Below are positions 3,599 through 33,712 of a stretch of DNA of 36,095 nt, piece after piece; position 1 is the stretch's first letter; each line of letters starts with the position of its first letter. The notes beneath the pieces are model-generated. The model made no database searches, was not told where the DNA came from, and saw only the letters and a list, made by a program, of their open reading frames with translations. The DNA is from Candidatus Azambacteria bacterium GW2011_GWA2_42_9 (GTDB lineage: Bacteria > Patescibacteriota > Minisyncoccia > UBA10092): positions 1 through 36,095 of the forward strand of contig LCEQ01000003.1 in NCBI GenBank assembly GCA_000994805.1. Reading direction: 5' to 3'. Made by a program: the position numbers and the translations under genes.

Positions 3599-4705
3599 AT
3601 GTGGCGCAGAAATAAACTTTTGTGTAGTTTATTGATAATCTTATTTTTGTCGATTTTTACATATTTGATTTATAATTTTGGATTTTATAGATTAATTCCT
3701 AAAGAAAAATCATCTTATGAACTTTATGAAGACGCATTAAAATATACTTTTTTCATTATTTCAGAAGATTTGGAAGAAATTCTTGGAAATAAATCGAAAC
3801 CGGGCGGTATCGGCGTGGGAAGTGGGTTTGTCATTAAAAAGGCTGACGAATATTACCTAGTAACTGCAAATCACGTTGTTGAAAAAAAGAATTTATTTTA
3901 TATTTCGTTTAATAATGAAAAAAAGATTTATAGGGTTAAAAAATTAGGATGGGATCAAAGATTTGACTTAGCGGTTTTGAAATTTGACGAAGACGTTAAA
4001 TGGTCGCATTCCGCCGTTCTCGGTAAGGGTTTGGAAAAAGTCGGCGATAAAGTTTATGTATTGGGCAATCCTTTGGGGCTCAAGTTTTTTTGGCTCAATG
4101 GTAATTTAATTAAAACAAAGGTTTATATTCTGGGTCTCACAACTGGTTTTTTGGCGACGGATGCCATTTGTAATCCGGGTAATTCAGGCGGCCCGATTAT
4201 TAATAGCAGAGGAGAAGTTATTGGAATAGTAGATTTAATCACCACCAGTTCAAATCCAATCTGTATGGCGATTCCTGTTGAAATTTTAAATAAATTATTG
4301 TTTCCATTAAGTGTTGGAGAGGTAGAACATGGTTTTATGGGATTCGGTATAGTTAATTCCTGGCAACTTACTCCTGAAATGAGGAAAAAAATAGAATTAG
4401 GAGAAAGAATAATAGAAGATGGAGTTATTGTGGTTAATGTTATGCCGGGTTCTCCGGCATATGGAAATCTTAAAAAAGGAGACCTGCTTTTAAGTTACGG
4501 GCCCGGCCCAGAAAATCCCAACATTATTATTAAAGACGCCAATGAATTTTTGGAAGAGCTGAATACATCGTTTTTTCTTGGAGATGAGATTGCCATTAAA
4601 TTCCGCCGCGGTAAAGACCATCTGGTGAAAAAATTAAAATTAGTTAACTCCTCAACTTTTATAAGACCAGAAGTGTCGAAAAAAATTCCCTTTCCGATTC
4701 CGTAA
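3599..4705 (+). CDS. membrane-anchored trypsin-like serine protease with C-terminal PDZ (HtrA/DegP-like, S1C)
   Basis: N-terminal TM helix (LLCSLLIILFLSIFTYLIY). Triad context TANHVV / DLAVLKF / GNSGGPIIN. The C-terminal PDZ-like segment contains GSPAYGNLKKGDLLL. Confidence 0.85.
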   Translation: MWRRNKLLCSLLIILFLSIFTYLIYNFGFYRLIPKEKSSYELYEDALKYTFFIISEDLEEILGNKSKPGGIGVGSGFVIKKADEYYLVTANHVVEKKNLFYISFNNEKKIYRVKKLGWDQRFDLAVLKFDEDVKWSHSAVLGKGLEKVGDKVYVLGNPLGLKFFWLNGNLIKTKVYILGLTTGFLATDAICNPGNSGGPIINSRGEVIGIVDLITTSSNPICMAIPVEILNKLLFPLSVGEVEHGFMGFGIVNSWQLTPEMRKKIELGERIIEDGVIVVNVMPGSPAYGNLKKGDLLLSYGPGPENPNIIIKDANEFLEELNTSFFLGDEIAIKFRRGKDHLVKKLKLVNSSTFIRPEVSKKIPFPIP

Positions 4706-4708
4706 ATT

Positions 4709-4728
4709 GCCCCATATGGGGTTTTTTA
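4709..4728 (+). terminator. weak intrinsic terminator
   Basis: GCCCC-ATAT-GGGG followed by TTTTTTATTTT, immediately after the stop at 4705. The stem is short. Confidence 0.5.
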
Positions 4729-4744: not shown

Positions 4745-4773
4745 TTGACGCACTCTGGGTTTTTTGTTAGGGT
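4745..4773 (+). promoter_or_regulatory. putative sigma70-like promoter (TTGACG-17-TAGGGT)
   Basis: TTGACG at 4745-4750, a 17-nt spacer, and TAGGGT at 4768-4773. The decamer GTTAGGGTAG also occurs in the promoter-like site at 19129-19138. Confidence 0.4.
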
Positions 4774-4820
4774 AGGCTCAATTTAAGTACGTTGATAATT
4801 CAATAAATGGGGGATTGGCT

Positions 4821-5510
4821 ATGAGTATTCCGGCAAAGTATAGCAATACCAATTTTGTAATGTTTTTACGCGCTCTTATCTTTAATGCCGTTTGTATTAT
4901 ATTAGTGGTTTGGATATATCAAGGAGGACACATAGATACCATTTTGAAATTTGACGTCCTCTATATTTCACGAATTATTTCCGGACTTGGGATTTTGGGT
5001 CTATGTACAATAATTATTCGAATTTTTCAAATTTCTCGCGAGCTCAATATAGTAAAGAAATACCGCGAATTAATAGATTCTGGCAGCAATAAAAAAAATG
5101 CCGACGAATGGCTCCAGTCTACAAATTCGCGCGTGTCCGAATTTATTCGGAACTACCAAAGAGTGCTTCCGGAGGACAAATCAGTGTTTGTAGGAAATTT
5201 TCAAATGACCATTGCCAGCAAATTATCCATTTTTGGTTCAACGACAGATTGGCTTACGACCTTGGGTTTGTTGGGTACTGTTATCGGCTTTCGAATAGCT
5301 CTTGAGGTGATGACCGGTCTTAAGGACATTGGCCTATTGGCGACATTCGTGCAAAACATATCCGGCGGCTTAATGATTGCCATTGACACAACTATTGTTG
5401 GAATATGTGCGGCATTATGGCTGGATGTAAATTTAAAATGGATTCTCCGTCCCGGTGCGGTGCAACTGGTGAGTGAGGCGGTTAACACAGGAGTTCTATA
5501 TCATGAATGA
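4821..5510 (+). CDS. MotA/TolQ/ExbB-family proton channel-like membrane protein
   Basis: Four predicted TM helices in a 2 + cytoplasmic loop + 2 layout. Signature LTTLGLLGTVIGF in TM3 and GGLMIAIDTTIVGICAAL in TM4. GGGGGA lies 6-7 nt before the ATG at 4821. The ORF track starts at TTG 4815. Confidence 0.7.
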   Translation: MSIPAKYSNTNFVMFLRALIFNAVCIILVVWIYQGGHIDTILKFDVLYISRIISGLGILGLCTIIIRIFQISRELNIVKKYRELIDSGSNKKNADEWLQSTNSRVSEFIRNYQRVLPEDKSVFVGNFQMTIASKLSIFGSTTDWLTTLGLLGTVIGFRIALEVMTGLKDIGLLATFVQNISGGLMIAIDTTIVGICAALWLDVNLKWILRPGAVQLVSEAVNTGVLYHE

Positions 5511-6105
5511 TTTCGAGTCCAACAATAATCTATCTGATACACCTATGCGCGATGTTGGTTGGAATATAGCCATTACATTTATTGTACTTTTTTTCTTGGC
5601 TACTTTAGTTTCGCAAATACCTAAAAAGAAAGAAGAAAATCAAATAAAGATATGGGGCGATATTATGATCACAATTGAGTGGCCGGATAAAAAAGACATT
5701 GATGTTGACTTGTGGGCAAAATCCCCAGATGATCCTTTACCTGTGGGATATTCAAGAACGAGGGGGTCAACCCTTGCTCTTCTTAAGGATATTACTGGGC
5801 TTAATAATAATCCCACGGGCAGAATGCGCGAAGTAATATTTGGCGATGGTACTCCCGATGGCAGATATACCGTGAATGTACATCTTTATCGAAACGCTTC
5901 TTCGCTTACCAATGTGCCGGTTGACGCAAAAATCTTTATGGTTGACGGCAGTAATGTAGTAAAAATCGTTAAAAAAAGAGTTTTTCTGAAAAACGTCAGA
6001 GACGAAATTACTATAGCAAATTTTAATTTAAAAGGCGGAAAACTTTTAGGAAAACCGGATGATAAATATGTTCCGCTTCGCGTTGTTACAGGGGGCGGGC
6101 CATGA
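5503..6105 (+). CDS. single-pass membrane protein, stator-partner-like (Asp at TM entry) with beta-sandwich-like ectodomain
   Basis: ATGAATGA overlap with the upstream stop indicates translational coupling. N-terminus MRDVGWNIAITFIVLFFLATLV places an Asp at the cytoplasmic end of the TM, as in MotB/ExbD/TolR. The ectodomain pattern DIDVDLWAKSPDD...VGY...D.TG...DGRYTVNVHLY resembles DUF2135/YfaP-type domains, from memory. Confidence 0.5.
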   Translation: MNDFESNNNLSDTPMRDVGWNIAITFIVLFFLATLVSQIPKKKEENQIKIWGDIMITIEWPDKKDIDVDLWAKSPDDPLPVGYSRTRGSTLALLKDITGLNNNPTGRMREVIFGDGTPDGRYTVNVHLYRNASSLTNVPVDAKIFMVDGSNVVKIVKKRVFLKNVRDEITIANFNLKGGKLLGKPDDKYVPLRVVTGGGP

Positions 6106-6728
6106 GTAATTATATGGACGCAAGCTTCTATCTTGTGAATATTAATCCATACTTTCTAGCCGCTTTGGCAATTGCTTTCATTTTGGGGATTGTTTCTATC
6201 TGGTCGAATCACTCCCTAATTTTCAAATTAACCGCATTAATAACAATTGGCGTCATGGTCTGGTTTACATTAAACGCTTTTAATAAAACGAACGATAAAA
6301 TAAATTATGTTATTAAAGAAACGAATGCCAAAATAAAGTATTTGGAAAAAAGTCTTTTGTCAAAACCAAAAATCGTCACGTACGAAGAATTACAAGGCAT
6401 GATCCCGGAAGGACACCCGGGACACCTGGTGCTTTATGGCGAGGCCGCCGAGGAAGGAATCTATTTACTTCTTCGTAGTCCGGGTATTTCTGAACCCCGT
6501 TATTATTTGATGGGGGCCAGTGATAAATTGAAAGAACAATTCAAAGATGCGGAATTTAATGCTCAAAAGAAGCAGACACAACTTTTCTTGGGCGGCAAAA
6601 TCAAGGGCGAAAAAAATAAAGAACAAAGAGAAGGGATTAACGGACAAGGAACGCAAAAAAGCGAAGGCGGGCTGGGCGTTTTTCATCCGGCCCCCGTTAC
6701 AGGAGATGGTCCATCAAAACCCCGATAA
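6102..6728 (+). CDS. hypothetical 2-TM membrane protein with Lys/Gly-rich C-terminal tail
   Basis: 4-nt ATGA overlap with the upstream gene. Two N-terminal hydrophobic helices. No family recognised. Confidence 0.6.
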   Translation: MSNYMDASFYLVNINPYFLAALAIAFILGIVSIWSNHSLIFKLTALITIGVMVWFTLNAFNKTNDKINYVIKETNAKIKYLEKSLLSKPKIVTYEELQGMIPEGHPGHLVLYGEAAEEGIYLLLRSPGISEPRYYLMGASDKLKEQFKDAEFNAQKKQTQLFLGGKIKGEKNKEQREGINGQGTQKSEGGLGVFHPAPVTGDGPSKPR

Positions 6729-6737
6729 AGGGGTTTT
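6717..6737 (+). terminator. weak hairpin terminator overlapping stop codon
   Basis: AAACCCC-GATAAA-GGGGTTTT. The stop codon TAA sits in the loop. Confidence 0.4.
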
Positions 6738-6746
6738 AAATTTGGT

Positions 6747-6776
6747 TTGACACAAGATCGGTTTTTAATTTAGTCT
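6747..6776 (+). promoter_or_regulatory. putative promoter (TTGACA-18-TAGTCT)
   Basis: Consensus -35 TTGACA at 6747-6752, with TAGTCT at 6771-6776. A GGAGG RBS precedes the ATG at 6831. Confidence 0.4.
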
Positions 6777-6830: not shown

Positions 6831-7916
6831 ATGAAAATAAAAGAGAATCGGTCGCTTTTTCTCTTGATTTTATTACTGCTTGTGACTTTAACCATGCTTA
6901 CGACCGCCCGGCAGATTCTCAAAACCGAAAAATATGCCGAGTCGGTTGAGGAGGCGGTGGATATTGTTTCTAAACAAAGCGACTCGCGATTTGTGGAGCT
7001 GGTTGAAGTGCAAAATCTTCATTTTCAACAAATTATCGATTTGCAAAAAAAGGTGGATACTCTCCAATCCGGATTGAAAAAAGAGAAAAAAGAACGCGAC
7101 CAAACAAATCGACTATTGGGCATTGACGGTAAGTATGACAAAAACAACGTTTTGATTAAGCAAAAAGATCTAGACACTTTTTTGAATTACAAAACGGATG
7201 CCGTCTCGCTCGTTGTTTTCAACGTCAAGTCGGAAAAGTATGAAAATAACATTGTTGGTCCTCCAGTTACAGCGCCGGCGATTATTATCGGCAAATACGT
7301 ATTAATATCGTCACACACAAATGACCCGGAAGTGTTAAAAGAAATGTTTTTATCTAATTTTCCAGAGTCGGTAAAAGTTGAAATCTTTAAACACAATGTG
7401 GTTATGGTTATTAATGATAAGCCAGTGGAATTGAAAGAAATTTATAGGAACAGAGAAAAAGATTTCAGCTTATTTGAGATTCCGGCGGAAGCGGTCGAAA
7501 AAGTGAAAACTGTTTCAAACTTCCCATTTGAAATGGGCAGGAGCGGCGAATTAAAAATAGGCAATTTTATTTTTATGAATGGCCGACCTGGAGGCGAGTA
7601 CGAAATCGCCCGTTCTGGACACGTTACAACTCTTTCAATTCTTTATAGAGACGAAAATAACAATGGTGAATATAAAAAAGATGATAACAGTTTTGGGATT
7701 TCCGAAATTGTGTTGCCGGGAGATTCCGGGTCGCCCATCGTCGCTTTTCGGGACGGCAAGCCGGAACTTGTCGGAATTACTTTGGGATACATTGATGGGA
7801 GAGGAAAGGGCATTGTTCGTTCCTACGCTTTAAAAATAGACGTTGCGACCGATGAAATAAAAGAAAAACTTGGGATTGATTTGCGCGAAATTCAACGCAA
7901 GATTTTGAAGAAGTAA
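6831..7916 (+). CDS. membrane-anchored trypsin-like serine protease with coiled-coil stalk
   Basis: N-terminal TM (LFLLILLLLVTLTMLT). Heptad-like segment QQIIDLQKKVDTLQSGLKKEKKERD. Catalytic contexts VLISSHT / DFSLFEIP / LPGDSGSPIV. Strong RBS GGAGG. Confidence 0.8.
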   Translation: MKIKENRSLFLLILLLLVTLTMLTTARQILKTEKYAESVEEAVDIVSKQSDSRFVELVEVQNLHFQQIIDLQKKVDTLQSGLKKEKKERDQTNRLLGIDGKYDKNNVLIKQKDLDTFLNYKTDAVSLVVFNVKSEKYENNIVGPPVTAPAIIIGKYVLISSHTNDPEVLKEMFLSNFPESVKVEIFKHNVVMVINDKPVELKEIYRNREKDFSLFEIPAEAVEKVKTVSNFPFEMGRSGELKIGNFIFMNGRPGGEYEIARSGHVTTLSILYRDENNNGEYKKDDNSFGISEIVLPGDSGSPIVAFRDGKPELVGITLGYIDGRGKGIVRSYALKIDVATDEIKEKLGIDLREIQRKILKK

Positions 7917-17274: not shown

Positions 17275-17901
17275 ATGGTTAAAAAAATCGCCGCCTACGC
17301 TAAAGCTTCGGCGGGCCAAGCCAAACAGGAACGCACCGTCATTTTAATTAAACCTGACGGGGTAAAAAGAGGGCTTATTGGAGAAGTAATTTCTCGAATT
17401 GAAAAACGCGGCCTTAAGATAATAGCGCTTTCAATGATAAGCCCGACGCGAAAGCAAATTGACGAGCATTATCCCAAAGACCAGGCATGGGTGAAGCGCT
17501 TGGGCGAAAAATCTTTGGCGACCTACGCCAAATACGGCTGGGACGCCAAAGAAGAAATGGGGACCGACGATCCGATGAAAATCGGCAAGTCGGTGCGCGG
17601 CTGGATTTTGGATTTTATGACTTCCGGGCCGAGTGTCAAAATAGTGGTTGAGGGTATTCATGCCGTTGAGATGGTGAGAAAACTGGTGGGTAATTCCATT
17701 CCGGCTTTAGCAGAAATGGGCACCATCCGCGGCGATTTTTCAGTTGACTCGGCGGCTTTAGCAAACAAAAATCAGCGCGCGGTTCATAACCTCATCCACG
17801 CTTCGGAAACATCGGAAGAATCGGCGCATGAATTGTCTTATTGGTTTTCTCCTGAAGAAATTTTTGATTACAAAAGAGCGGAAGAGGATATTATGTTTTG
17901 A
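17275..17901 (+). CDS. ndk: nucleoside diphosphate kinase (long form)
   Basis: ERTVILIKPDG, GTIRGDF and NLIHASE (catalytic His). It is 208 aa because of an N-terminal extension and a ~35-aa insertion before FMTSGP. Confidence 0.9.
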   Translation: MVKKIAAYAKASAGQAKQERTVILIKPDGVKRGLIGEVISRIEKRGLKIIALSMISPTRKQIDEHYPKDQAWVKRLGEKSLATYAKYGWDAKEEMGTDDPMKIGKSVRGWILDFMTSGPSVKIVVEGIHAVEMVRKLVGNSIPALAEMGTIRGDFSVDSAALANKNQRAVHNLIHASETSEESAHELSYWFSPEEIFDYKRAEEDIMF

Positions 17902-22687: not shown

Positions 22688-22724
22688 GACTATTATCATC
22701 CGATCGGCTGATAATGGTCAATTT
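22688..22724 (-). promoter_or_regulatory. 37-bp palindromic promoter/operator module, copy 1 (upstream of infB)
   Basis: GACTATTATCA-TCCGATCGGC-TGATAATGGTC plus AATTT. Read on the minus strand it contains TTGACC-18-GATAAT. It is 32/37 identical to 23300-23336. Confidence 0.6.
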
Positions 22725-23292
22725 ACAGTAAATTAAATTTGTTTTTTAGATCTAGTTCTGTATCTACGCTCTTCACCTTTAAAAATCTCACATAAGGCGC
22801 GAGTTCAAATATTTCGGTAATGAAATCAATTTCAGCTTTACATTCGTATGGATGAATAAATACGCTTTTCTGCATCGGATAAAATCCAAGCTCTTTTAGT
22901 TTAGCCGCCAGCGCTTTTCTCCCGGGACTTTTATCTTCGGGGATATCAAAAATCACTAAACGCCACAACTTGTCCCATCTTATCGGCTTTTTAATCTCTA
23001 TTTTATCTAAATTATATTTCAAAATTTTATTTTTCCCGTTTTCACTTAAAACAAGTTTGACAGTACCGTCTTTGTTTTCTTTATAATCAATCAACTTAGA
23101 TTGATATAGTCTTTTGATTGACCTTCTAAGGCTTAGTTCGTTTATTTTCTTCCACTCTTTGGCAATCTTTTTTACCACTCTAAAATAAACATCCGGTCGG
23201 TGTGTCAATGACAAGGTTAACCCACCCACTAAGAGTAATAAAATTTTCTTTTGCATTGGTCCTAATTCTCTCATCGTTTTTGATATTATCAT
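22723..23292 (-). CDS. wHTH plus Cas2/VapD-fold (PaaX-like) putative transcriptional regulator
   Basis: N-terminal winged-helix-like segment. The C-terminal WRLVIFDIPEDKSPGRKALAAKLKELGFYPMQKSVFIHP matches the PaaX/Cas2 ferredoxin-fold pattern. The start is ambiguous (M1, M7 or M13). Confidence 0.6.
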   Translation of the reverse strand: MIISKTMRELGPMQKKILLLLVGGLTLSLTHRPDVYFRVVKKIAKEWKKINELSLRRSIKRLYQSKLIDYKENKDGTVKLVLSENGKNKILKYNLDKIEIKKPIRWDKLWRLVIFDIPEDKSPGRKALAAKLKELGFYPMQKSVFIHPYECKAEIDFITEIFELAPYVRFLKVKSVDTELDLKNKFNLL

Positions 23293-25988: not shown

Positions 25989-26015
25989 CCCCCGTCCCGC
26001 AGTGCGGGACGGGGC
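25989..26015 (-). terminator. intrinsic terminator of the NTF2-like lipoprotein gene (within the left inverted repeat)
   Basis: CCCCGTCCCG-loop-CGGGACGGGG, followed on the minus strand by GATTTTCATTTTT. Confidence 0.75.
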
Positions 26016-26038
26016 TTTGGTTCCGCCGTTTGGTGGTG

Positions 26039-26503
26039 TTACTGATCGTAATAGTAAATTTTCCAAACCCCACCTTCTCGGCGGAGTTTGAAAAGATAGG
26101 AGACTGAACCCGACCAGTCGCGGTCGCCGACGCCACGCTTGATGACGTCTACAATGTAGGAGACCTCGGCGGTATTGCCCGATATCTCCACATTCAGATT
26201 CCGCATCGTGCGGATTCTTGAGGATTTGTCCGCACTCTTCTTTGCGGTATATTGTCGCCAGTAGCTTTCAGCGGTGTGCGACCCGCCGATGTACGACGAC
26301 TTCAAAACAACATCTTTGGTGGTAACAACCATAAACTCAGCAAGGGTTTTGGCCGCGTAGAAAGCGTCTACGGTGGCCATCACCTCTTGTTTTTCAGGCG
26401 GCAAGACCGCCTTCATTTCGTTGTAGGTGGTGGCGCAGCCCGACAGAGCCAGGCCGACCGCAACCGCGATCAGAACTCCAATCAGGAAGTTGGCTCGCTT
26501 CAT
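26039..26503 (-). CDS. NTF2-like (SnoaL/DUF4440-type) lipoprotein
   Basis: Lipobox LALSGC, GAGGAGG SD, and a C-terminal GGVWKIYYYDQ beta-strand typical of NTF2-like folds. GC-rich codon usage. Confidence 0.65.
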   Translation of the reverse strand: MKRANFLIGVLIAVAVGLALSGCATTYNEMKAVLPPEKQEVMATVDAFYAAKTLAEFMVVTTKDVVLKSSYIGGSHTAESYWRQYTAKKSADKSSRIRTMRNLNVEISGNTAEVSYIVDVIKRGVGDRDWSGSVSYLFKLRREGGVWKIYYYDQ

Positions 26504-26580
26504 GGGATTCCTCCTCGGCTCTCTTGAGCCATTTTCGGGGTTTTTAGTTATTCGAGAACCAAACCTATTTTTATACCATA

Positions 26581-26609
26581 ATTATATCTTATTTTTCATC
26601 CCTTGTCAA
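26581..26609 (-). promoter_or_regulatory. consensus sigma70 promoter TTGACA-17-TATAAT (minus strand)
   Basis: On the minus strand the sequence reads TTGACA AGGGATGAAAAATAAGA TATAAT. Both hexamers are perfect. Confidence 0.7.
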
Positions 26610-26631
26610 ATTGTTATTTTTATGGTACAAT
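26603..26631 (+). promoter_or_regulatory. promoter TTGTCA-17-TACAAT (plus strand), -35 overlapping the divergent -35
   Basis: TTGTCA at 26603-26608, a 17-nt spacer, and TACAAT at 26626-26631. Confidence 0.6.
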
Positions 26632-26711
26632 TGAGGCACGAGTGAAGTTCTGGAACAAAAAAGCCAAAAATCCCAAAAAACCGGCGGTAAATCCGCCAAA
26701 AGGAGGATGTC

Positions 26712-27173
26712 ATGAACGAGCTCGCGTTTGCTCTGGTTGTATGGATCAGCAGCGTAACCGGCTACCCCGTGCCATCTACGGCGGACTTGCCAGAGATCAT
26801 GCAGATGACATCGGCCGAACTGAAGGTCAAGGTGATGGGTGCAAACGCCGAGAAGTCCGATTATGAAATTCTTGGCGGCTACGACGTGAAGGAAAATAAG
26901 CTCTATCTGAGCACGAGTTTCAATCCGCAGAACATCAGGAGCCAGAGCGACCTCGTTCACGAGTTGGTGCATTTCCTCCAGGTGCGCAATCGGACTCGCC
27001 AGCCCCTGTGCGACAACGGCGATGAAGCTGAGGCCTACACGGTCGAAAACCAATGGATGAAGGAACATGGTTTGCCGCCCGCAGTTCCCGAGCAGCACAT
27101 TGTGCTCATGAGTCTTTGCAACGTTGACAGCGTTGATGACGCTGTAGCAATTCTCAAGAGCGAGATGCGCTAA
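26712..27173 (+). CDS. small HExxH metallopeptidase-like protein (possibly DUF4157-like)
   Basis: AAGGAGG SD 5 nt before the ATG. Hydrophobic N-terminus MNELAFALVVWISSVTG. The motif LVHELVHFLQ with downstream EAEAY fits the LL.HEL.HV.Q pattern as I remember it. Confidence 0.6.
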   Translation: MNELAFALVVWISSVTGYPVPSTADLPEIMQMTSAELKVKVMGANAEKSDYEILGGYDVKENKLYLSTSFNPQNIRSQSDLVHELVHFLQVRNRTRQPLCDNGDEAEAYTVENQWMKEHGLPPAVPEQHIVLMSLCNVDSVDDAVAILKSEMR

Positions 27174-27199: not shown

Positions 27200-27235
27200 G
27201 CCCCATTCCAACTCGGGATGGGGCTTTTCATTTTT
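27200..27235 (+). terminator. intrinsic terminator (within the right inverted repeat)
   Basis: GCCCCATTCC-AACTC-GGGATGGGGC followed by TTTTCATTTTT. Confidence 0.75.
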
Positions 27236-27284
27236 GTCTGAAATTTTTTGGATAAAAATCAGAGTTTATGATTATATTATTCAT

Positions 27285-28346
27285 ATGAAGATACTCCATA
27301 TTTTGCCTCCGACAAATATCGGGCCGATTGATAAAAAATTACACACAGCCGGGATGATTCATTCCGTCTGGCTTTTGGATAAGTTTCTAACGAAAAGAGG
27401 GTATGAATCTTATGTTGCTTGGAGCAAAAACAGTAAAATTTGCGGTCGGCTCATACCGATAATAAATAACCTAACAGTTGATAGAATTCGCGAACCTAAA
27501 AAAGATTTTTTTACCAATTATTACGAAAAAATTTTTGACTTGGTTAACGATTCTGATTTTGATATTATCCATAACCATAAAAGGTTTATGGATTCATCAA
27601 TTCCATATCTGACATTTACCGTTGCCCTGACTAAAAAACAGACAGATGGCTACGTTAAGGGCGGTTATCAGGTTGATAAGATTATCAATAATGGTATTGA
27701 CATAAATGAATATCAAATAGGAAAAGGCAGACGGGAATTTTTACTAGCGATTGCCAGGATACTTCCCGATAAAGGCCAGGATGTGGCAATAAAAGTTTCT
27801 CGGCAAACCGGATTGCCTCTGATTATTGCCGGCGATATTTGGGATAAAAAATATTTTCATGAAAAAGTCGAGCCCCATATTGATGGAAAAAAAATAAAAT
27901 ATCTTGGCCCGGTGGATTTTGAAACAAAGATAAAGCTTTATCAAGGGGCCATTGCTTTGCTTGTGCCCGTTGAATGGGAGGAGCCATTTAATTTAACAAT
28001 GGTTGAGGCGATGGCTTGCGGGACGCCCGTAATCGGCTACAATCACGGCGCGATTGCCGAGGTTATTAAAGACGGGGAAACAGGATTTGTCGTTAGTAAT
28101 GTCGAAGAAATGACCGAAGCGGTAAAAAAAATTTCCGGCATTAATAAAAATATTTGCCGGGATTATGTGAAAGACAATTTTAATATAGAAAAGGTTATTG
28201 ATGGATACGAAATGATATATAAGCAAGTGGCAGAAAGGAAAAAATTTCATTCATTTATATATCCGCTAACGAAAATGGGGATTGCGAGTAATAAAAATCT
28301 AAGTTGGGTCGGTTCTTATATAAGGAAAAATATTATTAATTTCTGA
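27285..28346 (+). CDS. GT4-family (Glycos_transf_1) glycosyltransferase
   Basis: MKILHILPP start and the EX7E region EEPFNLTMVEAMACGTPVIG...E. The N-terminal domain looks short. Confidence 0.8.
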   Translation: MKILHILPPTNIGPIDKKLHTAGMIHSVWLLDKFLTKRGYESYVAWSKNSKICGRLIPIINNLTVDRIREPKKDFFTNYYEKIFDLVNDSDFDIIHNHKRFMDSSIPYLTFTVALTKKQTDGYVKGGYQVDKIINNGIDINEYQIGKGRREFLLAIARILPDKGQDVAIKVSRQTGLPLIIAGDIWDKKYFHEKVEPHIDGKKIKYLGPVDFETKIKLYQGAIALLVPVEWEEPFNLTMVEAMACGTPVIGYNHGAIAEVIKDGETGFVVSNVEEMTEAVKKISGINKNICRDYVKDNFNIEKVIDGYEMIYKQVAERKKFHSFIYPLTKMGIASNKNLSWVGSYIRKNIINF

Positions 28347-29705
28347 TTATTCCAAACGGGATACAAATGTTCTTTTTTTACCATCGGGTCCGATCGGTAT
28401 TTCTTTCAGTATCGATATCGATATATCTGTGTCTTTTCCGAGAATATTTTTAGCATCATGAATTATTTTGTCCTTTATATCTTTTTTAAAAAAATCTTCA
28501 GATTCTGAAACTATATTAAAAACTATTTTATCTTCAGTTTCTTGAACAACCTGATACTGTTTTATTTTATCCGTGAACTGCCAAATCGCAGGCCCGATTT
28601 CAAGAAAATGACTCTGCTTTCCATTAGGCAGAATTATTATTTCTTTAAGCCGTCCTTTGAAAGTTAGAATCGGTAAAGTTCGGCCGCATGCGCAAGGTCC
28701 CGGAATTATTTTTCCTTGATCTCCAACAAGATAACGAATAAACGGCATGATTTTATTTTCAAACATTGTAATGGCAATATTGCCAGTATGACCATGGGGC
28801 AATTGATAACCACGTTCATCAACAATTTCCAAATATAGCCACTCGCTATTTATATGAAAATTTCCAAACTCGCATTCTTGAGCGATTGTCATATTTTCTT
28901 TTGTTCCATAAGAACGGAATACCGGGCATCCGAGGGATTGCTTTATAAACTTTGATTCTTCCGGAGACAATGGCTCGGCTGCCGCGATAACAGCCTTAAT
29001 ATTGTGATTTATGCGGTCATTTTTTATGAGCTTGGCTAAGTGAATAAGAAAAGAAGATAAACTTTCCAAAATTACAGGCATAGAAGCAATCAAGGGATAT
29101 AAATCAAATTTTTTTTGCTCCAGCTCCCTCGGACTTGTGTAACTAAATAATATTCCTTCGGATTCCAAACCCGGATGGTTTGATTTCATTATTTTTATAA
29201 TCTGTCTGGGCTTACCGCAATACCAGTCTAAAAATCGATTGCGAATTGCCAATCTTCTGTTTAGCATTCCAATATCGCCATGAAATTTAAATGGTATTCC
29301 GGTTGATCCTGATGTACTTTTCAAATAAGAATTTTTTTCCGACACGTTTTTTACAGAGCACAATTTAGGAAAAGCCATTTGGAGTTCGGTTTTTGATATT
29401 GTTGTAATTTTTTGAATATCTTCCAATTTGTTAAAATCAACATTAGGGTTGAAATTTGCATTTTCAAATTTTTCTTTCCAAAAAATGACATTGTTGTACG
29501 AAAATATTAATAGATTTCTGATTTGTTTGATTTGGAGCCCCTCCATTGATTTTTTGGAAAAATACTGGCTATATTTAAGACATGCGGTATCTATGTTCGT
29601 CAGGATTTTTTTAATATAAATATTAGGCGAATAATCCAATTTAAATAAGCTCCAAAAACTATTATCGCGCCGTGTTAACATTATTGAGATTATGCTCCGT
29701 ATCAT
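28347..29705 (-). CDS. CapK/PaaK-like adenylate-forming enzyme (phenylacetate-CoA ligase family)
   Basis: The TSGSTGIPFKF AMP-binding motif and the overall length fit the family. The stop directly abuts the GT4 stop (TGATTA). Only 24 nt separate it from the divergent ATG, so an internal start (e.g. M54) is possible. Confidence 0.7.
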   Translation of the reverse strand: MIRSIISIMLTRRDNSFWSLFKLDYSPNIYIKKILTNIDTACLKYSQYFSKKSMEGLQIKQIRNLLIFSYNNVIFWKEKFENANFNPNVDFNKLEDIQKITTISKTELQMAFPKLCSVKNVSEKNSYLKSTSGSTGIPFKFHGDIGMLNRRLAIRNRFLDWYCGKPRQIIKIMKSNHPGLESEGILFSYTSPRELEQKKFDLYPLIASMPVILESLSSFLIHLAKLIKNDRINHNIKAVIAAAEPLSPEESKFIKQSLGCPVFRSYGTKENMTIAQECEFGNFHINSEWLYLEIVDERGYQLPHGHTGNIAITMFENKIMPFIRYLVGDQGKIIPGPCACGRTLPILTFKGRLKEIIILPNGKQSHFLEIGPAIWQFTDKIKQYQVVQETEDKIVFNIVSESEDFFKKDIKDKIIHDAKNILGKDTDISISILKEIPIGPDGKKRTFVSRLE

Positions 29706-29729
29706 TAAGATTAATTATATACCTTTTTT

Positions 29730-32700
29730 ATGAAGGACTGTCCAAATAATAACGCCGACATCGGTTTTATCGCGCAGGTGCCGTATCATTTTTATGTTTT
29801 TAAAAATATCATAAAACATCTTTCCGATGCGGAATTTATTGTCGGCGAACCATATTCGTACGATGAACCGCCAGAAATACAATCCAAGCGTCTCGGAGGG
29901 CTAATTGATCTGATAGAAAAAGAAAAAATTCCTTGGAGGTTTTTTGATTTTGAAAAAGATCGTAATCCCAGAAATAATTTTTTTGAAAAATATAATATTT
30001 TAGTAGCCACAACTGCCAATGGCATTATCACATCGCCGCTGATAAAATCAATTAAAAAAGTTCGGGTTCAGTACGGCCAGAGCAAGGACGCTTTTGAATT
30101 CGGCGATTGGAACAGATATTTTGATTTAATTCTTGCACAAGGTCCGTATTCAGCGCAACATTTTAGAGCATTAACTCAATGCGTGGAAATCGGCTTCCCT
30201 AAATTCGACGATTGGTTTAACGGCAAAATTGACGGCGCGGACGCAGGAGAACTGAAAAGCAAAATGGATCCGCGAAAAAAAACACTATTGTATTTGCCGA
30301 CGCACGGCGCGCTTTCTTCGCTTGAAAAATATCAAGAACCTCTTTTGTCATTAAGGAACAAGTACAATATTTTGGTCAAATTTCATCCTCGCACAGTTTG
30401 GTATGATTCGGGGCAAGTTTTGTTTTACAAAAATAATGGCTTTGCAACTTATGACGATTCTGCCGATATTTTACCGATGCTGAAAATTGCCGATATCGTT
30501 ATCAGTGATAGCGGCGGCGCAGCTTTTGACGCTCTTTTGGCGGAGAAATCTTTAGTAATTTTGGACGTTCCCATAGCCGCGGAAGAAACGGGAGAACTAC
30601 AAACTCAAGAAAACAGCATAGAACAGGTTATAAAAAGAGAGAGGAAACGAATTGGGCCGGTTGTTGATTCGCCGGATAAATTGGAATCGGCCTTAGAAAT
30701 CGCGGAACAGGAATTTTTTGAAGAACGGCGACGAGAATGGCGAGGGAAATTATTTTCATTTGTTGATGGTAAAGACGGCGAGCGCGCCGCCAGAGAGATT
30801 TTAAGATTTAAAAACAGAGGCCCCAATTATTCTGTTATTATCCCAACGTTTAATCGTTGCCAATCCTTAATTAAAGCTCTTAATTCTACTATAAATCAAA
30901 CCATCTCGGCCTCTAATTACGAAATCCTTGTTGTTGACGACGGATCTGCTGACGACACAAGTGAAGTTGTTTCGGAATTCCAAAAAAAGCATCCGAATGT
31001 CAAATATTTTTACCAACAGAATGGCGGCCCCGCTAAAGCACGCAATAAGGGAATTAAAGAATCTAAAGGTGAAATTATCTTTTTCACCGACGACGATTGT
31101 GTTGTTCCGCCGAATTGGATGGAAACCTTGCTTGATGGATTTGAGAGGTACCCAGGTGTCGCAGGTGTGGGAGGTTGGTACCAGCCGGCAAATAAATCAT
31201 TGGCGGATAAATATTTTCAAAGATATTTAGATTATTTTGATCGGCAAAATAATATTGGCATGATGGATACCGAAATTAAATCAAACATTTTTGGATATAA
31301 CCTTGCGGGTAATACTGCAAACATGGCTTATAAAAAATCTGTTTTGGAAGAAGTAAGTGGATTTGATGAAAAGCTTTATTTCGTCGGTGGCGTGGATTGG
31401 GAATTAAAAAAAAATATCCAAAACCGCGGCTATTATCTTTTGTATGTTCCTTTTATGGTCAATCATTTTAAAAATTTTAACGCGCGAACTTTTATTAAAA
31501 AATTCTTTAATCGGGGCCGCGGATATCATTATATGATAAAAAAACATCCCGATTTAAGAAATAGTTCTTACTACAATGTTAATCTCATAAATCTTTTGGA
31601 GCAAACGGTGAATTATGCGTTAAATGGTAACAAATTTTTACCTCTTCATTTTCATTTTTTGGCCTTGCTTTGCGTTTTTTGCGGCCGGTTTTATGCTAAA
31701 TATATTAATCAATTCAGTAATATTCCTAAAATTCTACTTAATGCGTCAGATAATTTTGAAATCGTTAAAAAAAAGACAGGCGAAGAAAGAATTTTTACAA
31801 CCAAGATTCGGCCGTTCAAATGTTGCGATACAAATACGCGAATACATACTAATAATACGAATAATACTAATAAGATAAAATATTCCATCATCATCCCGAC
31901 ATTTAATCGTTGCCAATCCTTAATCAAAGCTCTTAATTCTACTATAAATCAAACTATCCCAGCCTTTAATTATGAAATTATTGTTATTGATGACGATTCG
32001 ACGGATGATACAAAATCTCAAATTTCCCGCCTTCGCCAAGGCTTTGGCGGGCAAGCAAAACCGGAAATAAGATATTTTAAGATTGAACATGGTGGCCCCG
32101 CCAAAGCCAGAAACAAGGGAATTAAAGAATCTAAAGGTGAAATTATCTTTTTCACCGACGACGATTGTGTTGTTCCGTCGAATTGGATGGAAACCTTGCT
32201 TGATGGTTATAAAAGATATCCCAATATTGTGGGAGTTGGGGGGTGGCTTATAGAACCAAAAGAAACATTAAGAAAGAGTTATTTGGCAAGATATATACAC
32301 TATATTCATTTTTGTATTGATTATTTTCCGGCGTGGACATTATTTAACTGCGAGATTTTAAGCAACGATCCCGAACGGGGATTAGGCAACTTTGCTGGCA
32401 ATACGGCCAATCTGTCCATAAAAAGGGATATTTTGGAACAAATGAGCGGTTTCAGAGAAGATTATTATTGGCCGGGAAGCGAGGACTCGGATTTGTCTTT
32501 CAGGATTCTCAATGCCGGCTTAAAACTTCTATATGTGCCATTTCACGTTGAGCATATTAAAAATATAGATTTATGGGGACTTATGAAATTATTTTTCAAA
32601 CGCGGCGCCAATTTTTATCTTTTTCTGAAATTTAATAAAGAAGCGTTGGATAAAATTAACGCCGGTAATCCGGAAAATTACGATACTTTCCCGATACTTA

Positions 32701-32801
32701 TAAGGCGATTATTTTATCGGCCGCAAAAATTTTTGACCCTATTGCAGTTTTTAAGCCATAAATTGGGAATGGTTTATATGAAAAATAAATTAGGTGAATA
32801 A
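29730..32801 (+). CDS. three-module enzyme: CDP-glycerol glycerophosphotransferase (TagB/TagF)-like plus GT2 plus GT2
   Basis: TagF-like module: LLYLPTHG, KFHP and ADIVISDSGGAAFDALL. Two GT2 modules each start YS(V/I)IIPTFNRCQSLIKALNSTINQT...DD(G/D)S.DDT...FFTDDDCVVP.NW. Confidence 0.8.
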   Translation: MKDCPNNNADIGFIAQVPYHFYVFKNIIKHLSDAEFIVGEPYSYDEPPEIQSKRLGGLIDLIEKEKIPWRFFDFEKDRNPRNNFFEKYNILVATTANGIITSPLIKSIKKVRVQYGQSKDAFEFGDWNRYFDLILAQGPYSAQHFRALTQCVEIGFPKFDDWFNGKIDGADAGELKSKMDPRKKTLLYLPTHGALSSLEKYQEPLLSLRNKYNILVKFHPRTVWYDSGQVLFYKNNGFATYDDSADILPMLKIADIVISDSGGAAFDALLAEKSLVILDVPIAAEETGELQTQENSIEQVIKRERKRIGPVVDSPDKLESALEIAEQEFFEERRREWRGKLFSFVDGKDGERAAREILRFKNRGPNYSVIIPTFNRCQSLIKALNSTINQTISASNYEILVVDDGSADDTSEVVSEFQKKHPNVKYFYQQNGGPAKARNKGIKESKGEIIFFTDDDCVVPPNWMETLLDGFERYPGVAGVGGWYQPANKSLADKYFQRYLDYFDRQNNIGMMDTEIKSNIFGYNLAGNTANMAYKKSVLEEVSGFDEKLYFVGGVDWELKKNIQNRGYYLLYVPFMVNHFKNFNARTFIKKFFNRGRGYHYMIKKHPDLRNSSYYNVNLINLLEQTVNYALNGNKFLPLHFHFLALLCVFCGRFYAKYINQFSNIPKILLNASDNFEIVKKKTGEERIFTTKIRPFKCCDTNTRIHTNNTNNTNKIKYSIIIPTFNRCQSLIKALNSTINQTIPAFNYEIIVIDDDSTDDTKSQISRLRQGFGGQAKPEIRYFKIEHGGPAKARNKGIKESKGEIIFFTDDDCVVPSNWMETLLDGYKRYPNIVGVGGWLIEPKETLRKSYLARYIHYIHFCIDYFPAWTLFNCEILSNDPERGLGNFAGNTANLSIKRDILEQMSGFREDYYWPGSEDSDLSFRILNAGLKLLYVPFHVEHIKNIDLWGLMKLFFKRGANFYLFLKFNKEALDKINAGNPENYDTFPILIRRLFYRPQKFLTLLQFLSHKLGMVYMKNKLGE
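31047..31138 (+). repeat. internal repeat copy A (91/92 nt identical to 32115-32206)
   Basis: AAGGGAATTAAAGAATCTAAAGGTGAAATTATCTTTTTCACCGACGACGATTGTGTTGTTCCG(C/T)CGAATTGGATGGAAACCTTGCTTGATGG. Confidence 0.95.
32115..32206 (+). repeat. internal repeat copy B
   Basis: Offset by 1068 nt from copy A. The flanking codons are clearly more diverged. Confidence 0.95.
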
Positions 32802-32803
32802 TT

Positions 32804-33712
32804 ATGTATTCTGTCGTTATTCCTACTTATAATCGTTCGGGCTCTCTTTTAAAAACACTATCCTCTGTTGTTAATCAGACGTTGCCCACGGATAATTATG
32901 AAGTTCTAATTATCGACGACGGCTCAATCGACAATACCGAAGAAATAGTAGCAAGGTACAAGCAGCAAGTAGCAAGTCCGGAAATACGGTATTTTAAAAT
33001 TAAACACGGCGGATCAGCGGCAGCTAAAAATTTTGGAATAAAACGGGCGAGGGGCGAAATCGTCTTTTTTACCGACGACGATTGCGTTGTTCCCAAAAAC
33101 TGGATGGTGACGCTTTTGGACGGCTACAGGAGATACCCAGAGGTGGTTGGTGTGGGGGGATATTTCAAGCCGCCGGACGGCGAGAATAGATTTTTTCAAA
33201 AGATGGCTTATTTAATAAACACCCTGGCCGATTCCTTTAATAAAGAAAAGATTATTGACAATTTCTTTTCTTCGGCGGCTTTTTCCGCCAATGTTTCGTA
33301 TAAAAAAGATATCTTGGAAAAAACAGGCGGTTTTGACGAAAACATTTCGGCTACGGCCAGCGTGGAATTAAGATACAGATTAATTGCCAAGCAAAAAGAA
33401 AAAATTCTCTGTATTCCGATGTTTGTCACGCATCATTGCGATTTGAATTTTTTCGGATACATTAAAAAACTTTTCCGCCAGGGCCGATGCAAACAATATT
33501 GCAATGACAAATATTTTAGAGGTAATCCGCCGCTGGCGTTTGACGTAACTTTTTGGCGCGCGTCAAAAAAATTGTTTGTTGCGTTTCATAATATTTTAAA
33601 AATAAAAGATGTAAAAAAACCGGATTTGCCGGCGATTTTTATCTTTTTATTTTTGGAAGCATTCCTCAATGCCGCCGGCGGATCTGTGGAAAAATATTTT
33701 AGTAAATTATGA
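32804..33712 (+). CDS. GT2-family glycosyltransferase (third paralog of the same module)
   Basis: YSVVIPTYNRSGSLLKTLSSVVNQT, DDGSIDNT and FFTDDDCVVPKNW. It starts 2 nt after the upstream stop. Confidence 0.85.
   Translation: MYSVVIPTYNRSGSLLKTLSSVVNQTLPTDNYEVLIIDDGSIDNTEEIVARYKQQVASPEIRYFKIKHGGSAAAKNFGIKRARGEIVFFTDDDCVVPKNWMVTLLDGYRRYPEVVGVGGYFKPPDGENRFFQKMAYLINTLADSFNKEKIIDNFFSSAAFSANVSYKKDILEKTGGFDENISATASVELRYRLIAKQKEKILCIPMFVTHHCDLNFFGYIKKLFRQGRCKQYCNDKYFRGNPPLAFDVTFWRASKKLFVAFHNILKIKDVKKPDLPAIFIFLFLEAFLNAAGGSVEKYFSKL

Follow-up and report, generated by a model that had tools for sequence, protein, structure and literature searches.

A conserved three-gene operon that probably encodes an ion-driven envelope machine with a MotA/ExbB-type channel subunit

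Three overlapping genes, here called g1, g2 and g3, lie on a 36,095-nucleotide stretch of DNA from Candidatus Azambacteria bacterium GW2011_GWA2_42_9 (contig LCEQ01000003.1, positions 1 to 36,095 of the forward strand), which was analysed as a whole and is referred to below as the window. They probably encode an unstudied ion-driven machine of the cell envelope. The balance of the evidence leans towards a membrane complex of the MotA/ExbB/TolQ kind (a "5:2 ion-driven motor") in which two of the subunits belong to new families. Judged by sequence comparison with other genomes, the operon is the Candidate Phyla Radiation (CPR) branch of a large, unannotated three-gene family. The data themselves show that g1 belongs to the MotA/ExbB family and keeps its Thr residues, that Asp17 of g2 is conserved, that the three genes are strictly syntenic and that they are linked to proteases in CPR genomes; to these come the folds predicted for g2 and g3 and the predicted location of the g3 domain outside the cytoplasm. 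The three genes are as follows.

4821-5510, + strand: g1, ATG start, TGA stop, 229 amino acids; A subunit, a four-helix membrane protein of the MotA/ExbB/TolQ family
5503-6105, + strand: g2, ATG start, TGA stop, 200 amino acids; candidate B subunit
6102-6728, + strand: g3, ATG start, TAA stop, 208 amino acids; candidate C subunit or adaptor

As read from the sequence, g1 and g2 overlap by 8 nt, the ATG of g2 lying within ATGAATGA, and g2 and g3 overlap by 4 nt, the ATG of g3 lying within an ATGA across the g2 stop codon. A G-rich Shine–Dalgarno-like stretch is present 5′ of all three starts. The trio region is identical to NCBI contig LCDB01000005.1 and to groundwater metagenome scaffolds, and public gene calls on identical contigs give the same products of 229, 200 and 208 amino acids. 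The three overlapping genes of a first-pass annotation of the window are thus confirmed by the sequence, the open reading frames (ORFs) and the public gene calls. Among the genomic loci compared in this analysis (designated by L-numbers), one metagenome contig differs from the window only in that its g1 appears as two called ORFs, of 73 and 101 amino acids (L004, 3998-4521), which is probably due to a frameshift or an assembly error.

The channel subunit and its Asp-bearing partner

By profile comparison g1 is a member of the MotA/ExbB family, as had been proposed. It scores 26.2 bits against the Pfam family MotA_ExbB (PF01618), above the curated gathering score of 22.9, and 17 of 18 diverse members of the g1 family match PF01618 singly, with a best E value of 1.7e-11. 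A profile of the 18 members also matched chains of the PDB over the third and fourth transmembrane helices (TM3-TM4), the ZorA-like chain 8vvn at 1.7e-5 and MotA 8gqy at 3.6e-5, followed by ZorA 8qyy (1.4e-4) and PomA 8brd; ExbB was reached at E = 0.47 only. By this measure the TM3-TM4 core of g1 is nearer to the MotA/PomA/ZorA side than to ExbB. The family profile was required for these matches, and the spurious PPR-repeat hits returned by the single g1 sequence against the PDB were set aside.

The hydrophobicity profile of g1 has segments at residues 12-30, 52-70 and 183-201 and a glycine-rich LGLLGTVIGF helix at ~141-163, which corresponds to the 2+2 layout of MotA and to the signature noted in the first-pass annotation. 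The loop measures ~70 amino acids, so that the cytoplasmic loop is small, and the C-terminus is short. Among the 18 diverse sequences G149, G152, T153 and G156 of TM3 and A187, T191 and G194 of TM4 are invariant, and T190 is conserved in at least 90%. TM4 had been likened to a plug helix, which is a misnomer: it bears the conserved Thr-Thr pair (T190, T191), and in known motors the plug is part of the B subunit. T153 lies within LGLLGT and T191 within DTT, and both align to the corresponding motifs of MotA 8gqy. In solved motors, according to PMC12204202 (section 8), such threonines line the pore around the Asp of the B subunit.

The partner protein g2 has a single membrane helix at residues 18-36, with R16-D17 directly before it. 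Asp17 is kept in 255 of the 263 family members that reach the N-terminus (97%, at ~30% identity), which bears out the earlier description of a single-pass protein with an Asp at the membrane entry. The N-terminus is short and acidic, and a linker of ~15 residues leads from the helix to a beta-sandwich (residues ~53-186). In the AlphaFold2 model the latter is all-beta; the mean predicted local distance difference test score (pLDDT) of the model is 77.9, and values within the sandwich are ~85-92. W60, D67, D69, W71, D96 and E110 are invariant in 289 family members, and the acidic cluster formed by D67, D69, D96 and E110 may be a metal site.

No family of Pfam, NCBIfam or PADLOC matches g2 above threshold, and searches of the PDB by sequence, including one with a 49-sequence profile, gave no match. 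Foldseek comparison of the model with the PDB returned generic beta-sandwiches with nothing below 0.001, the best being a lipoxygenase chain (8i6y, Arabidopsis LOX1; E = 2e-3) and the others assorted beta-sandwich domains. No OmpA-like domain was found in Pfam or NCBIfam, and in the model the sandwich follows the linker directly. For ExbD/TolR (PF02472) there was no Pfam match at E <= 1 and no ExbD or TolR chain in the Foldseek search. The first-pass annotation had recognised neither an OmpA/peptidoglycan-binding nor an ExbD-like domain in g2; the profile searches, the model and the structural comparison agree, and by the same searches g2 is not a standard ExbD, TolR or MotB. Sub-threshold matches to DUF2135 (PF09906) were seen in 11 of 49 g2 members (best E = 1.5e-4), covering ~25 residues only, in the strand region G-E-Y-x-V-N-V-H-x-Y; DUF2135 is unmentioned in the literature searched.

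Two further groups of g2-like proteins were encountered. A second g2 paralogue lies a few kb from the trio in L049 (2192-2803 and 6532-7140), L057, L093 and L099, all of them marine alphaproteobacterial metagenome-assembled genomes (MAGs), some labelled Pelagibacterales. This second g2 is unlinked, with no g1 or g3 of its own, and keeps the F-R-D motif and all invariant residues of the sandwich, which at the level of sequence hints at heterodimeric B subunits. A more distant family (L024, 2869-3474; L046, 3051-3653; L124, 1800-2657; E ~1e-25 to 1e-17) shows an Asp within its helix (GLADLLLC) together with the motif DSDVDLW, and adjoins DUF6456-like and helix-turn-helix genes. These distant proteins were set aside because MotA-like and g3-like neighbours are absent.

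The third protein and the conservation of the trio

The structure of g3 was predicted with homologues from databases. The AlphaFold2 model (mean pLDDT 77.6) has helices at residues 16-34 and 39-86 and a strand/helix domain at 90-163, so that two membrane helices and a long helix, the latter extended in the CPR clade, are followed by a small alpha/beta domain and a C-terminal tail that contains proline. After the membrane anchor comes a short motif of Lys and Pro, KPKP. P89, K90, I120 and P132 are invariant and R133 is conserved in at least 90%; a conserved His of the SHLS type is absent from the membrane helices. There is no Pfam or NCBIfam family for g3, and Foldseek found nothing in the PDB below E = 0.2, in keeping with its earlier description as an unrecognisable protein with two membrane helices. 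The loop between the helices carries 2.9 Lys or Arg residues on average, against 0.05 in the N-terminus. Following the positive-inside rule, g3 is therefore predicted to have both termini outside, with the C-terminal domain probably extracytoplasmic.

A word-indexed search with the single g2 sequence gave 20 close relatives only. An exhaustive profile search of 50%-identity clusters yielded 1,617 representatives at E <= 1e-3, 1,059 of them at E <= 1e-10, and more than 4,855 were found in 90%-identity clusters. All are named "hypothetical" or are unnamed, and none has a Pfam domain. Loci were then surveyed with a degenerate DNA pattern for W-P-x3-D-x-D-V-D-L-W in one genome per GTDB species, which yielded at least 119 loci, nearly all of them true g2; taxon counts from this survey describe a sample, not a census. 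The order g1-g2-g3 on one strand is found in ~105 of the 119 loci listed, in several phyla, and most of the others are cut by contig ends. Conservation of the gene order, which the first-pass annotation had raised for related genomes, thus extends far beyond close relatives, and the retention of the trio in more than 100 independent genomes rules out a chance arrangement. None of the three outcomes that the first-pass annotation had named as refuting its interpretation was observed, and that interpretation is supported. One could still imagine that g2 and g3 are small membrane proteins with no tie to the MotA-like gene beyond a common transcript, the Asp being coincidental. However, the gene order is strict across phyla at ~30% identity, the start and stop codons overlap and Asp17 is 97% conserved, and we find such a coincidence scarcely credible.

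The hosts among the loci listed are mostly Alphaproteobacteria (Geminicoccaceae, Kiloniellales, Rhodospirillales, Azospirillum, Mesorhizobium and MAGs labelled Pelagibacterales), and further include Gamma- and Deltaproteobacteria, Gemmatimonadaceae, Nitrospiraceae, Thermomicrobiales, Verrucomicrobiia and CPR MAGs. Relatives of the window's trio occur in MAGs labelled Saccharibacteria and Parcubacteria. The trio had been presented as an orphan of a CPR genome. It is indeed real, but it is neither an orphan nor specific to CPR bacteria, as it belongs to a large family that in our sample is mostly found in diderm Alphaproteobacteria. These bacteria usually also carry Tol and Ton systems and often flagellar motors, and the lack of such systems to energise is thus not the core puzzle.

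Azospirillum brasilense Sp7 and A. argentinense have two copies each, on replicons of ~1.8 Mb, that of Sp7 being p1 with 1.75 Mb; each of these Azospirillum replicons (H1-H7) has two matching places, and the plasmid records are without annotation at the match. Two copies of the whole trio on different contigs are also seen in many alphaproteobacterial genomes, namely L010/L122, L019/L094, L023/L059, L025/L100, L033/L063, L039/L081, L050/L110 and L051/L067. In Mesorhizobium sp. SARCC-RB16n (L117, 3242-5035) g2 falls into two frames, the C-terminal portion reading on in frame into g3; the trio looks damaged, and a pseudogene, a fault of the assembly and a genuine fusion are all conceivable. The locus looks frameshifted, and the apparent g2-g3 fusion was not used as evidence on topology.

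No other conserved neighbour was found among the 119 loci listed. Flanking ORFs that do recur are few, none of their families being present in more than 9 loci, and encode SfsA, an ABC ATPase or unknowns. In Alphaproteobacteria the neighbours of the trio are ordinary core genes, such as those for electron transfer flavoprotein (ETF), 3-hydroxyacyl-CoA dehydrogenase (3HCDH) and ATP synthase, and are constant between related genomes. Since core genes are syntenic among relatives (dprA and pth in CPR genomes, ETF and 3HCDH in Alphaproteobacteria), the context of the trio looks vertically inherited.

Proteases beside the CPR trio, operon edges and the rest of the window

The elements next to the trio in the window are the following.

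3599-4705, + strand: g0, membrane-anchored HtrA/DegP-type serine protease with PDZ domain; CPR neighbour, outside the conserved trio
4709-4722, + strand: upstream hairpin, terminator-like with a T-run; closes g0 and marks the upstream operon edge
4745-4773, + strand: promoter-like site of the first-pass annotation, TTGACG (4745-4750), 17 nt, TAGGGT (4768-4773)
6716-6737, + strand: downstream hairpin, overlaps the g3 stop codon and marks the downstream operon edge
6831-7916, + strand: g4, membrane-anchored trypsin-like serine protease, 361 amino acids

Both flanking proteases begin with a signal anchor, g0 with MWRRNK and a hydrophobic segment at residues 7-25, g4 with MKIKENR and a hydrophobic segment at residues 8-26. 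The g0 product matches Trypsin_2 (4.2e-22), PDZ_2 weakly and TIGR02037 degP_htrA_DO (2.7e-38). That of g4 matches Trypsin_2 with 28.4 bits (gathering score 27.6), and its His (SH), Asp (DFSLFE) and GDSG motifs are invariant in 13 of 13 distinct homologues.

Within the CPR clade synteny is recognisable down to 45-50% identity, in the order dprA (- strand), [HtrA], g1-g2-g3, [S41-PDZ], g4, pth (- strand) and signal peptidase I, the bracketed genes being present in some genomes. HtrA lies 5′ of the trio in the closest relatives of the window and in L008, and is absent in L006 and L009. The g4 gene follows in L001-L009, L052 and L134-L143 wherever the contig extends, and is absent outside the CPR clade. 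An S41 (C-terminal processing) peptidase with PDZ domain stands directly after g3 in L137 (8276-9493, at a gap of 4 nt), L143 (8395-9609), L052 (5109-6356) and L072 (1-1158); the window has no S41-PDZ gene after g3 and carries HtrA 5′ of the trio instead.

In a neighbour-joining tree of g2 the window groups with L006, L008, L009 and L052 in a deep clade that is sister to everything else, and g2 of L072, a Parcubacteria MAG, nests among the proteobacterial types. The independently derived trio of L072 is likewise flanked by HtrA and an S41-PDZ peptidase, and genes for HtrA, S41-PDZ and trypsin-like proteases thus flank the trio in two phylogenetically separate g2 lineages of CPR genomes. No protease link to the trio was seen in the proteobacterial loci listed. 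The association with flanking proteases about which the first-pass annotation had asked is therefore real in CPR genomes and, by comparison of the loci, limited to them.

At the upstream edge the hairpin at 4709-4722 consists of GCCCCATATGGGGT, followed by TTTTTTATTTT. It folds with -11.2 kcal/mol (z = -3.0), none of 200 shuffled sequences folding equally well, and is the better terminator-like hairpin of the two. The downstream hairpin, AAAACCCCGATAAAGGGGTTTT, has 8 pairs and only a weak T-run after it; the fold of the surrounding 61 nt (6715-6775) has -15.4 kcal/mol and z = -2.6. The operon does end at a hairpin, as had been described, although with a poor T-run. A promoter-like site ahead of the operon, on the other hand, is unsupported: the -10 hexamer of the TTGACG/TAGGGT site fits at 3 of 6 positions, the site is below the threshold of a sigma-70 scan and was not reported by it, and the 9 promoter-like sites found in the operon region are within chance (6.9 +/- 2.6 expected from shuffled sequence).

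The rest of the 36 kb window contains mainly housekeeping genes (topA, dprA, pth, lepB, hisS, ftsA, ftsZ, comEC, infB, rbfA) and glycosyltransferase genes. As observed in the first-pass annotation, it has no flagellar, TonB or Tol genes. In a protein of 1,023 amino acids (29730-32801) two glycosyltransferase domains of family 2 are joined to a CDP-glycerol:poly(glycerophosphate) glycerophosphotransferase domain, and more glycosyltransferases are encoded at 27234-28346 and 32804-33712. These genes may be a cluster for a teichoic-acid-like wall polymer, which would fit a cell without an outer membrane. At 22723-23292 (- strand) a 189-amino-acid protein has a PaaX central Cas2-like domain (4.9e-19) and matches Cas2 faintly; neither a CRISPR array nor another cas gene was seen near it. 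The nucleoside diphosphate kinase encoded at 17275-17901 is unusually long (208 amino acids) and matches its profile in two separate stretches, and this sequence pattern suggests an insertion or an N-terminal extension. The G+C content ranges from 0.51 to 0.32 within 3 kb (26001-27000 versus 29001-30000). The sign of the GC skew switches near 18-25 kb, in a part of the window with five tRNA genes on the - strand.

Comparison with known motors and possible function

The trio shares with MotAB and PomAB an A subunit of four membrane helices in a 2+2 layout, with the motifs G-x-x-G-T in TM3 and T-T-x-x-G in TM4, adjacent and overlapping A and B genes, and a single-helix B subunit with an Asp near the N-terminal end. 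It differs from them in that g2 has a beta-sandwich instead of the plug helix, long linker and OmpA-like peptidoglycan-binding domain, in the cytoplasmic loop of g1, which is only ~70 amino acids long, in the obligatory third gene and in the lack of flagellar genes in the window.

With ExbB-ExbD-TonB and TolQ-TolR-TolA the likeness is one of tripartite logic, a channel ring, an Asp-bearing axle and a third anchored protein with a domain on the outer face, to which the KPKP motif after the g3 anchor may be added. In contrast, ExbB is hardly reached by the g1 profile, the ExbD/TolR fold is missing from g2, and g3, with its two helices, has neither the SHLS His nor a long proline-rich spacer nor a Foldseek match to the C-terminal domain of TonB or TolA. 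The trio occurs, moreover, in CPR bacteria, presumed to be without an outer membrane. The same comparison bears on the idea that the trio is a diverged Tol/Ton or stator paralogue feeding a canonical TonB, TolA-Pal or flagellar rotor encoded elsewhere. It would be compatible with the sampled hosts, most of which are Proteobacteria and would usually have such systems, and with the many genomes that have two trio copies. It is not readily reconciled with the absence of ExbD, TolR and OmpA domains from g2, with the architecture of g3, or with a trio in CPR genomes and a 36 kb window without such partner genes, and the loop of g1 is far shorter than the rotor-contacting cytoplasmic loop of MotA, the interface of which is described in PMC12505986. 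Taken together, we hold a diverged paralogue of this kind to be highly improbable.

The best PDB match of the g1 profile and several further ones are ZorA-type chains, in the TM3-TM4 core, and faint ZorA matches were also obtained with NCBIfam and PADLOC. This could point to a Zorya-type anti-phage or conflict system, in which a MotAB-like membrane sensor triggers an effector. However, the PADLOC matches to ZorA fall short of significance (E = 0.03 to 0.7), and neither g2 nor g3 has a match there. The long ZorA tail is absent (g1 has 229 amino acids, the matched ZorA chains 434-729), as is a ZorB-type peptidoglycan-binding domain, and no nuclease, helicase or other effector gene, ZorC, ZorD and ZorE-like ones included, is conserved nearby in the loci listed. 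Furthermore, the locus stands in stable core-gene synteny and not in variable islands, and carriers of the trio include CPR genomes and MAGs labelled Pelagibacterales, two groups known for small genomes. A defence system is in our view very unlikely. As for GldLM and PorLM, neither Pfam nor NCBIfam gave a GldL or GldM match and the Foldseek list of g2 contained no GldM chain; unlike the long multi-domain periplasmic rod of GldM, g2 has a single sandwich of ~135 residues.

The closest published precedent (PMC12204202, section 8) are TolQ-like genes paired with von Willebrand factor A (vWA) proteins, non-ExbD partners that bear an Asp in a "transpore helix"; these systems are described there as known by genomics only, with function not known. 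As in the trio, a MotA/TolQ gene is tightly linked to a partner other than ExbD or MotB that has an Asp helix and an unrelated ectodomain. The ectodomain here is, however, a beta-sandwich, and the partners described in that study are mostly heterologous pairs, whereas here there is one g2 with a distinct g3. The study ends by stating that the diversity of 5:2 motors driven by the proton motive force (PMF) remains to be discovered. A survey of MotAB relatives (PMC12505986) presents heterogeneous "generic ion transporter" complexes with compact B subunits, which do not have the architecture of the trio. Full-text literature searches returned no description of the family. It is thus conserved in thousands of bacteria and yet undescribed in the literature found, with a recognisable channel subunit and, as far as sequence and model comparisons tell, two partners that are new folds or families.

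In the ion-driven machine that we favour, g1 would form the ion-conducting ring, with four membrane helices and conserved Thr residues on TM3 and TM4. The axle in the pore would be g2, its near-invariant Asp at the helix start being positioned like Asp25 of ExbD and Asp32 of MotB, and its membrane-proximal beta-sandwich would stand in place of the peptidoglycan-binding or ExbD fold of ExbD, TolR and MotB. As a peripheral adaptor g3 would dock by its two-helix hairpin and expose the small domain and the proline-containing tail on the outer face of the membrane, in a role analogous, not homologous, to that of TonB and TolA. Ion flow via g1 and g2 would then drive movement of the g2 and g3 ectodomains and so perform work on a target near the cytoplasmic membrane or the wall. 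What we infer for such a complex is its 5:2 stoichiometry, the ion and its path, an N-in orientation of g2, its rotation and its output. The presence of the family in both diderm Proteobacteria and CPR bacteria, together with the short linker of g2, suggests a target near the cytoplasmic membrane or in the wall and not at the outer membrane.

Several points weigh against a motor. Comparison of g2 by hhalign with E. coli ExbD and TolR gave probabilities of 3.6% and 1.5%, which are not significant; the best local alignment with ExbD, at the same non-significant 3.6%, sets Asp17 on Asp25, and in sequence terms this match is a positional resemblance, homology not being demonstrated. No plug helix is predicted in the g2 model and the linker is short, so that gating and reach would differ from those of known motors. 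The charges around the g2 helix leave its orientation unfixed, and the 5:2 stoichiometry and a contact between Asp17 and Thr are both putative. The neighbourhoods in proteobacteria contain nothing that indicates an output. The proteases beside the CPR trio could reflect synteny within a lineage together with a single coincidence.

The trio might instead be a plain ion channel or transporter on a MotA-like scaffold that generates no force, for instance a leak for cations or protons, or a channel that is mechanosensitive or gated by Ca2+, in which the g2 sandwich would sense a ligand or metal and g3 would have a regulatory role. Such a device would need no output partner, and none is conserved outside CPR genomes in the loci listed. 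It would also agree with the small cytoplasmic loop and short C-terminus of g1, with the invariant acidic cluster of the g2 sandwich, which looks like a metal site, and with the closeness of this sandwich to the membrane, at the end of a ~15-residue linker. However, all characterised PF01618 members that we know of, including those covered by reviews, are energy transducers with an Asp-bearing partner, and a third subunit that is strictly conserved and has an ectodomain recalls the way adaptors serve the Ton and Tol systems. We consider a plain channel unlikely.

Coming back to an ion-driven motor, its likeliest targets or partners in CPR genomes would be the adjacent membrane-anchored proteases (HtrA, S41 and trypsin-like). 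More specifically, the CPR trio might be a PMF-driven motor giving mechanical energy to proteolysis outside the cytoplasm, the ectodomains of g2 and g3 handing over, pulling or unfolding substrates for the adjacent HtrA, S41-PDZ and trypsin-like proteases, which would work in a compartment without ATP. This proposal is speculative and we rate it as quite unlikely, but the protease neighbourhood provides a concrete hypothesis for what the trio energises in CPR bacteria.

To our knowledge, 5:2 motors (MotAB, ExbBD, TolQR, GldLM, ZorAB) are the only route by which membrane energy reaches the envelope, and each new type of partner has so far revealed new biology. The distribution of the present family over diderm Proteobacteria and CPR bacteria makes a target specific to the outer membrane unlikely. 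Azospirillum brasilense is genetically tractable and strain Sp7 carries the trio, so that its function is directly testable. Should the trio indeed supply energy to proteolysis, this would be a fourth major class of output of 5:2 motors, besides motility, trans-envelope transport and tethering, and defence, and one that could be used by cells with or without an outer membrane.

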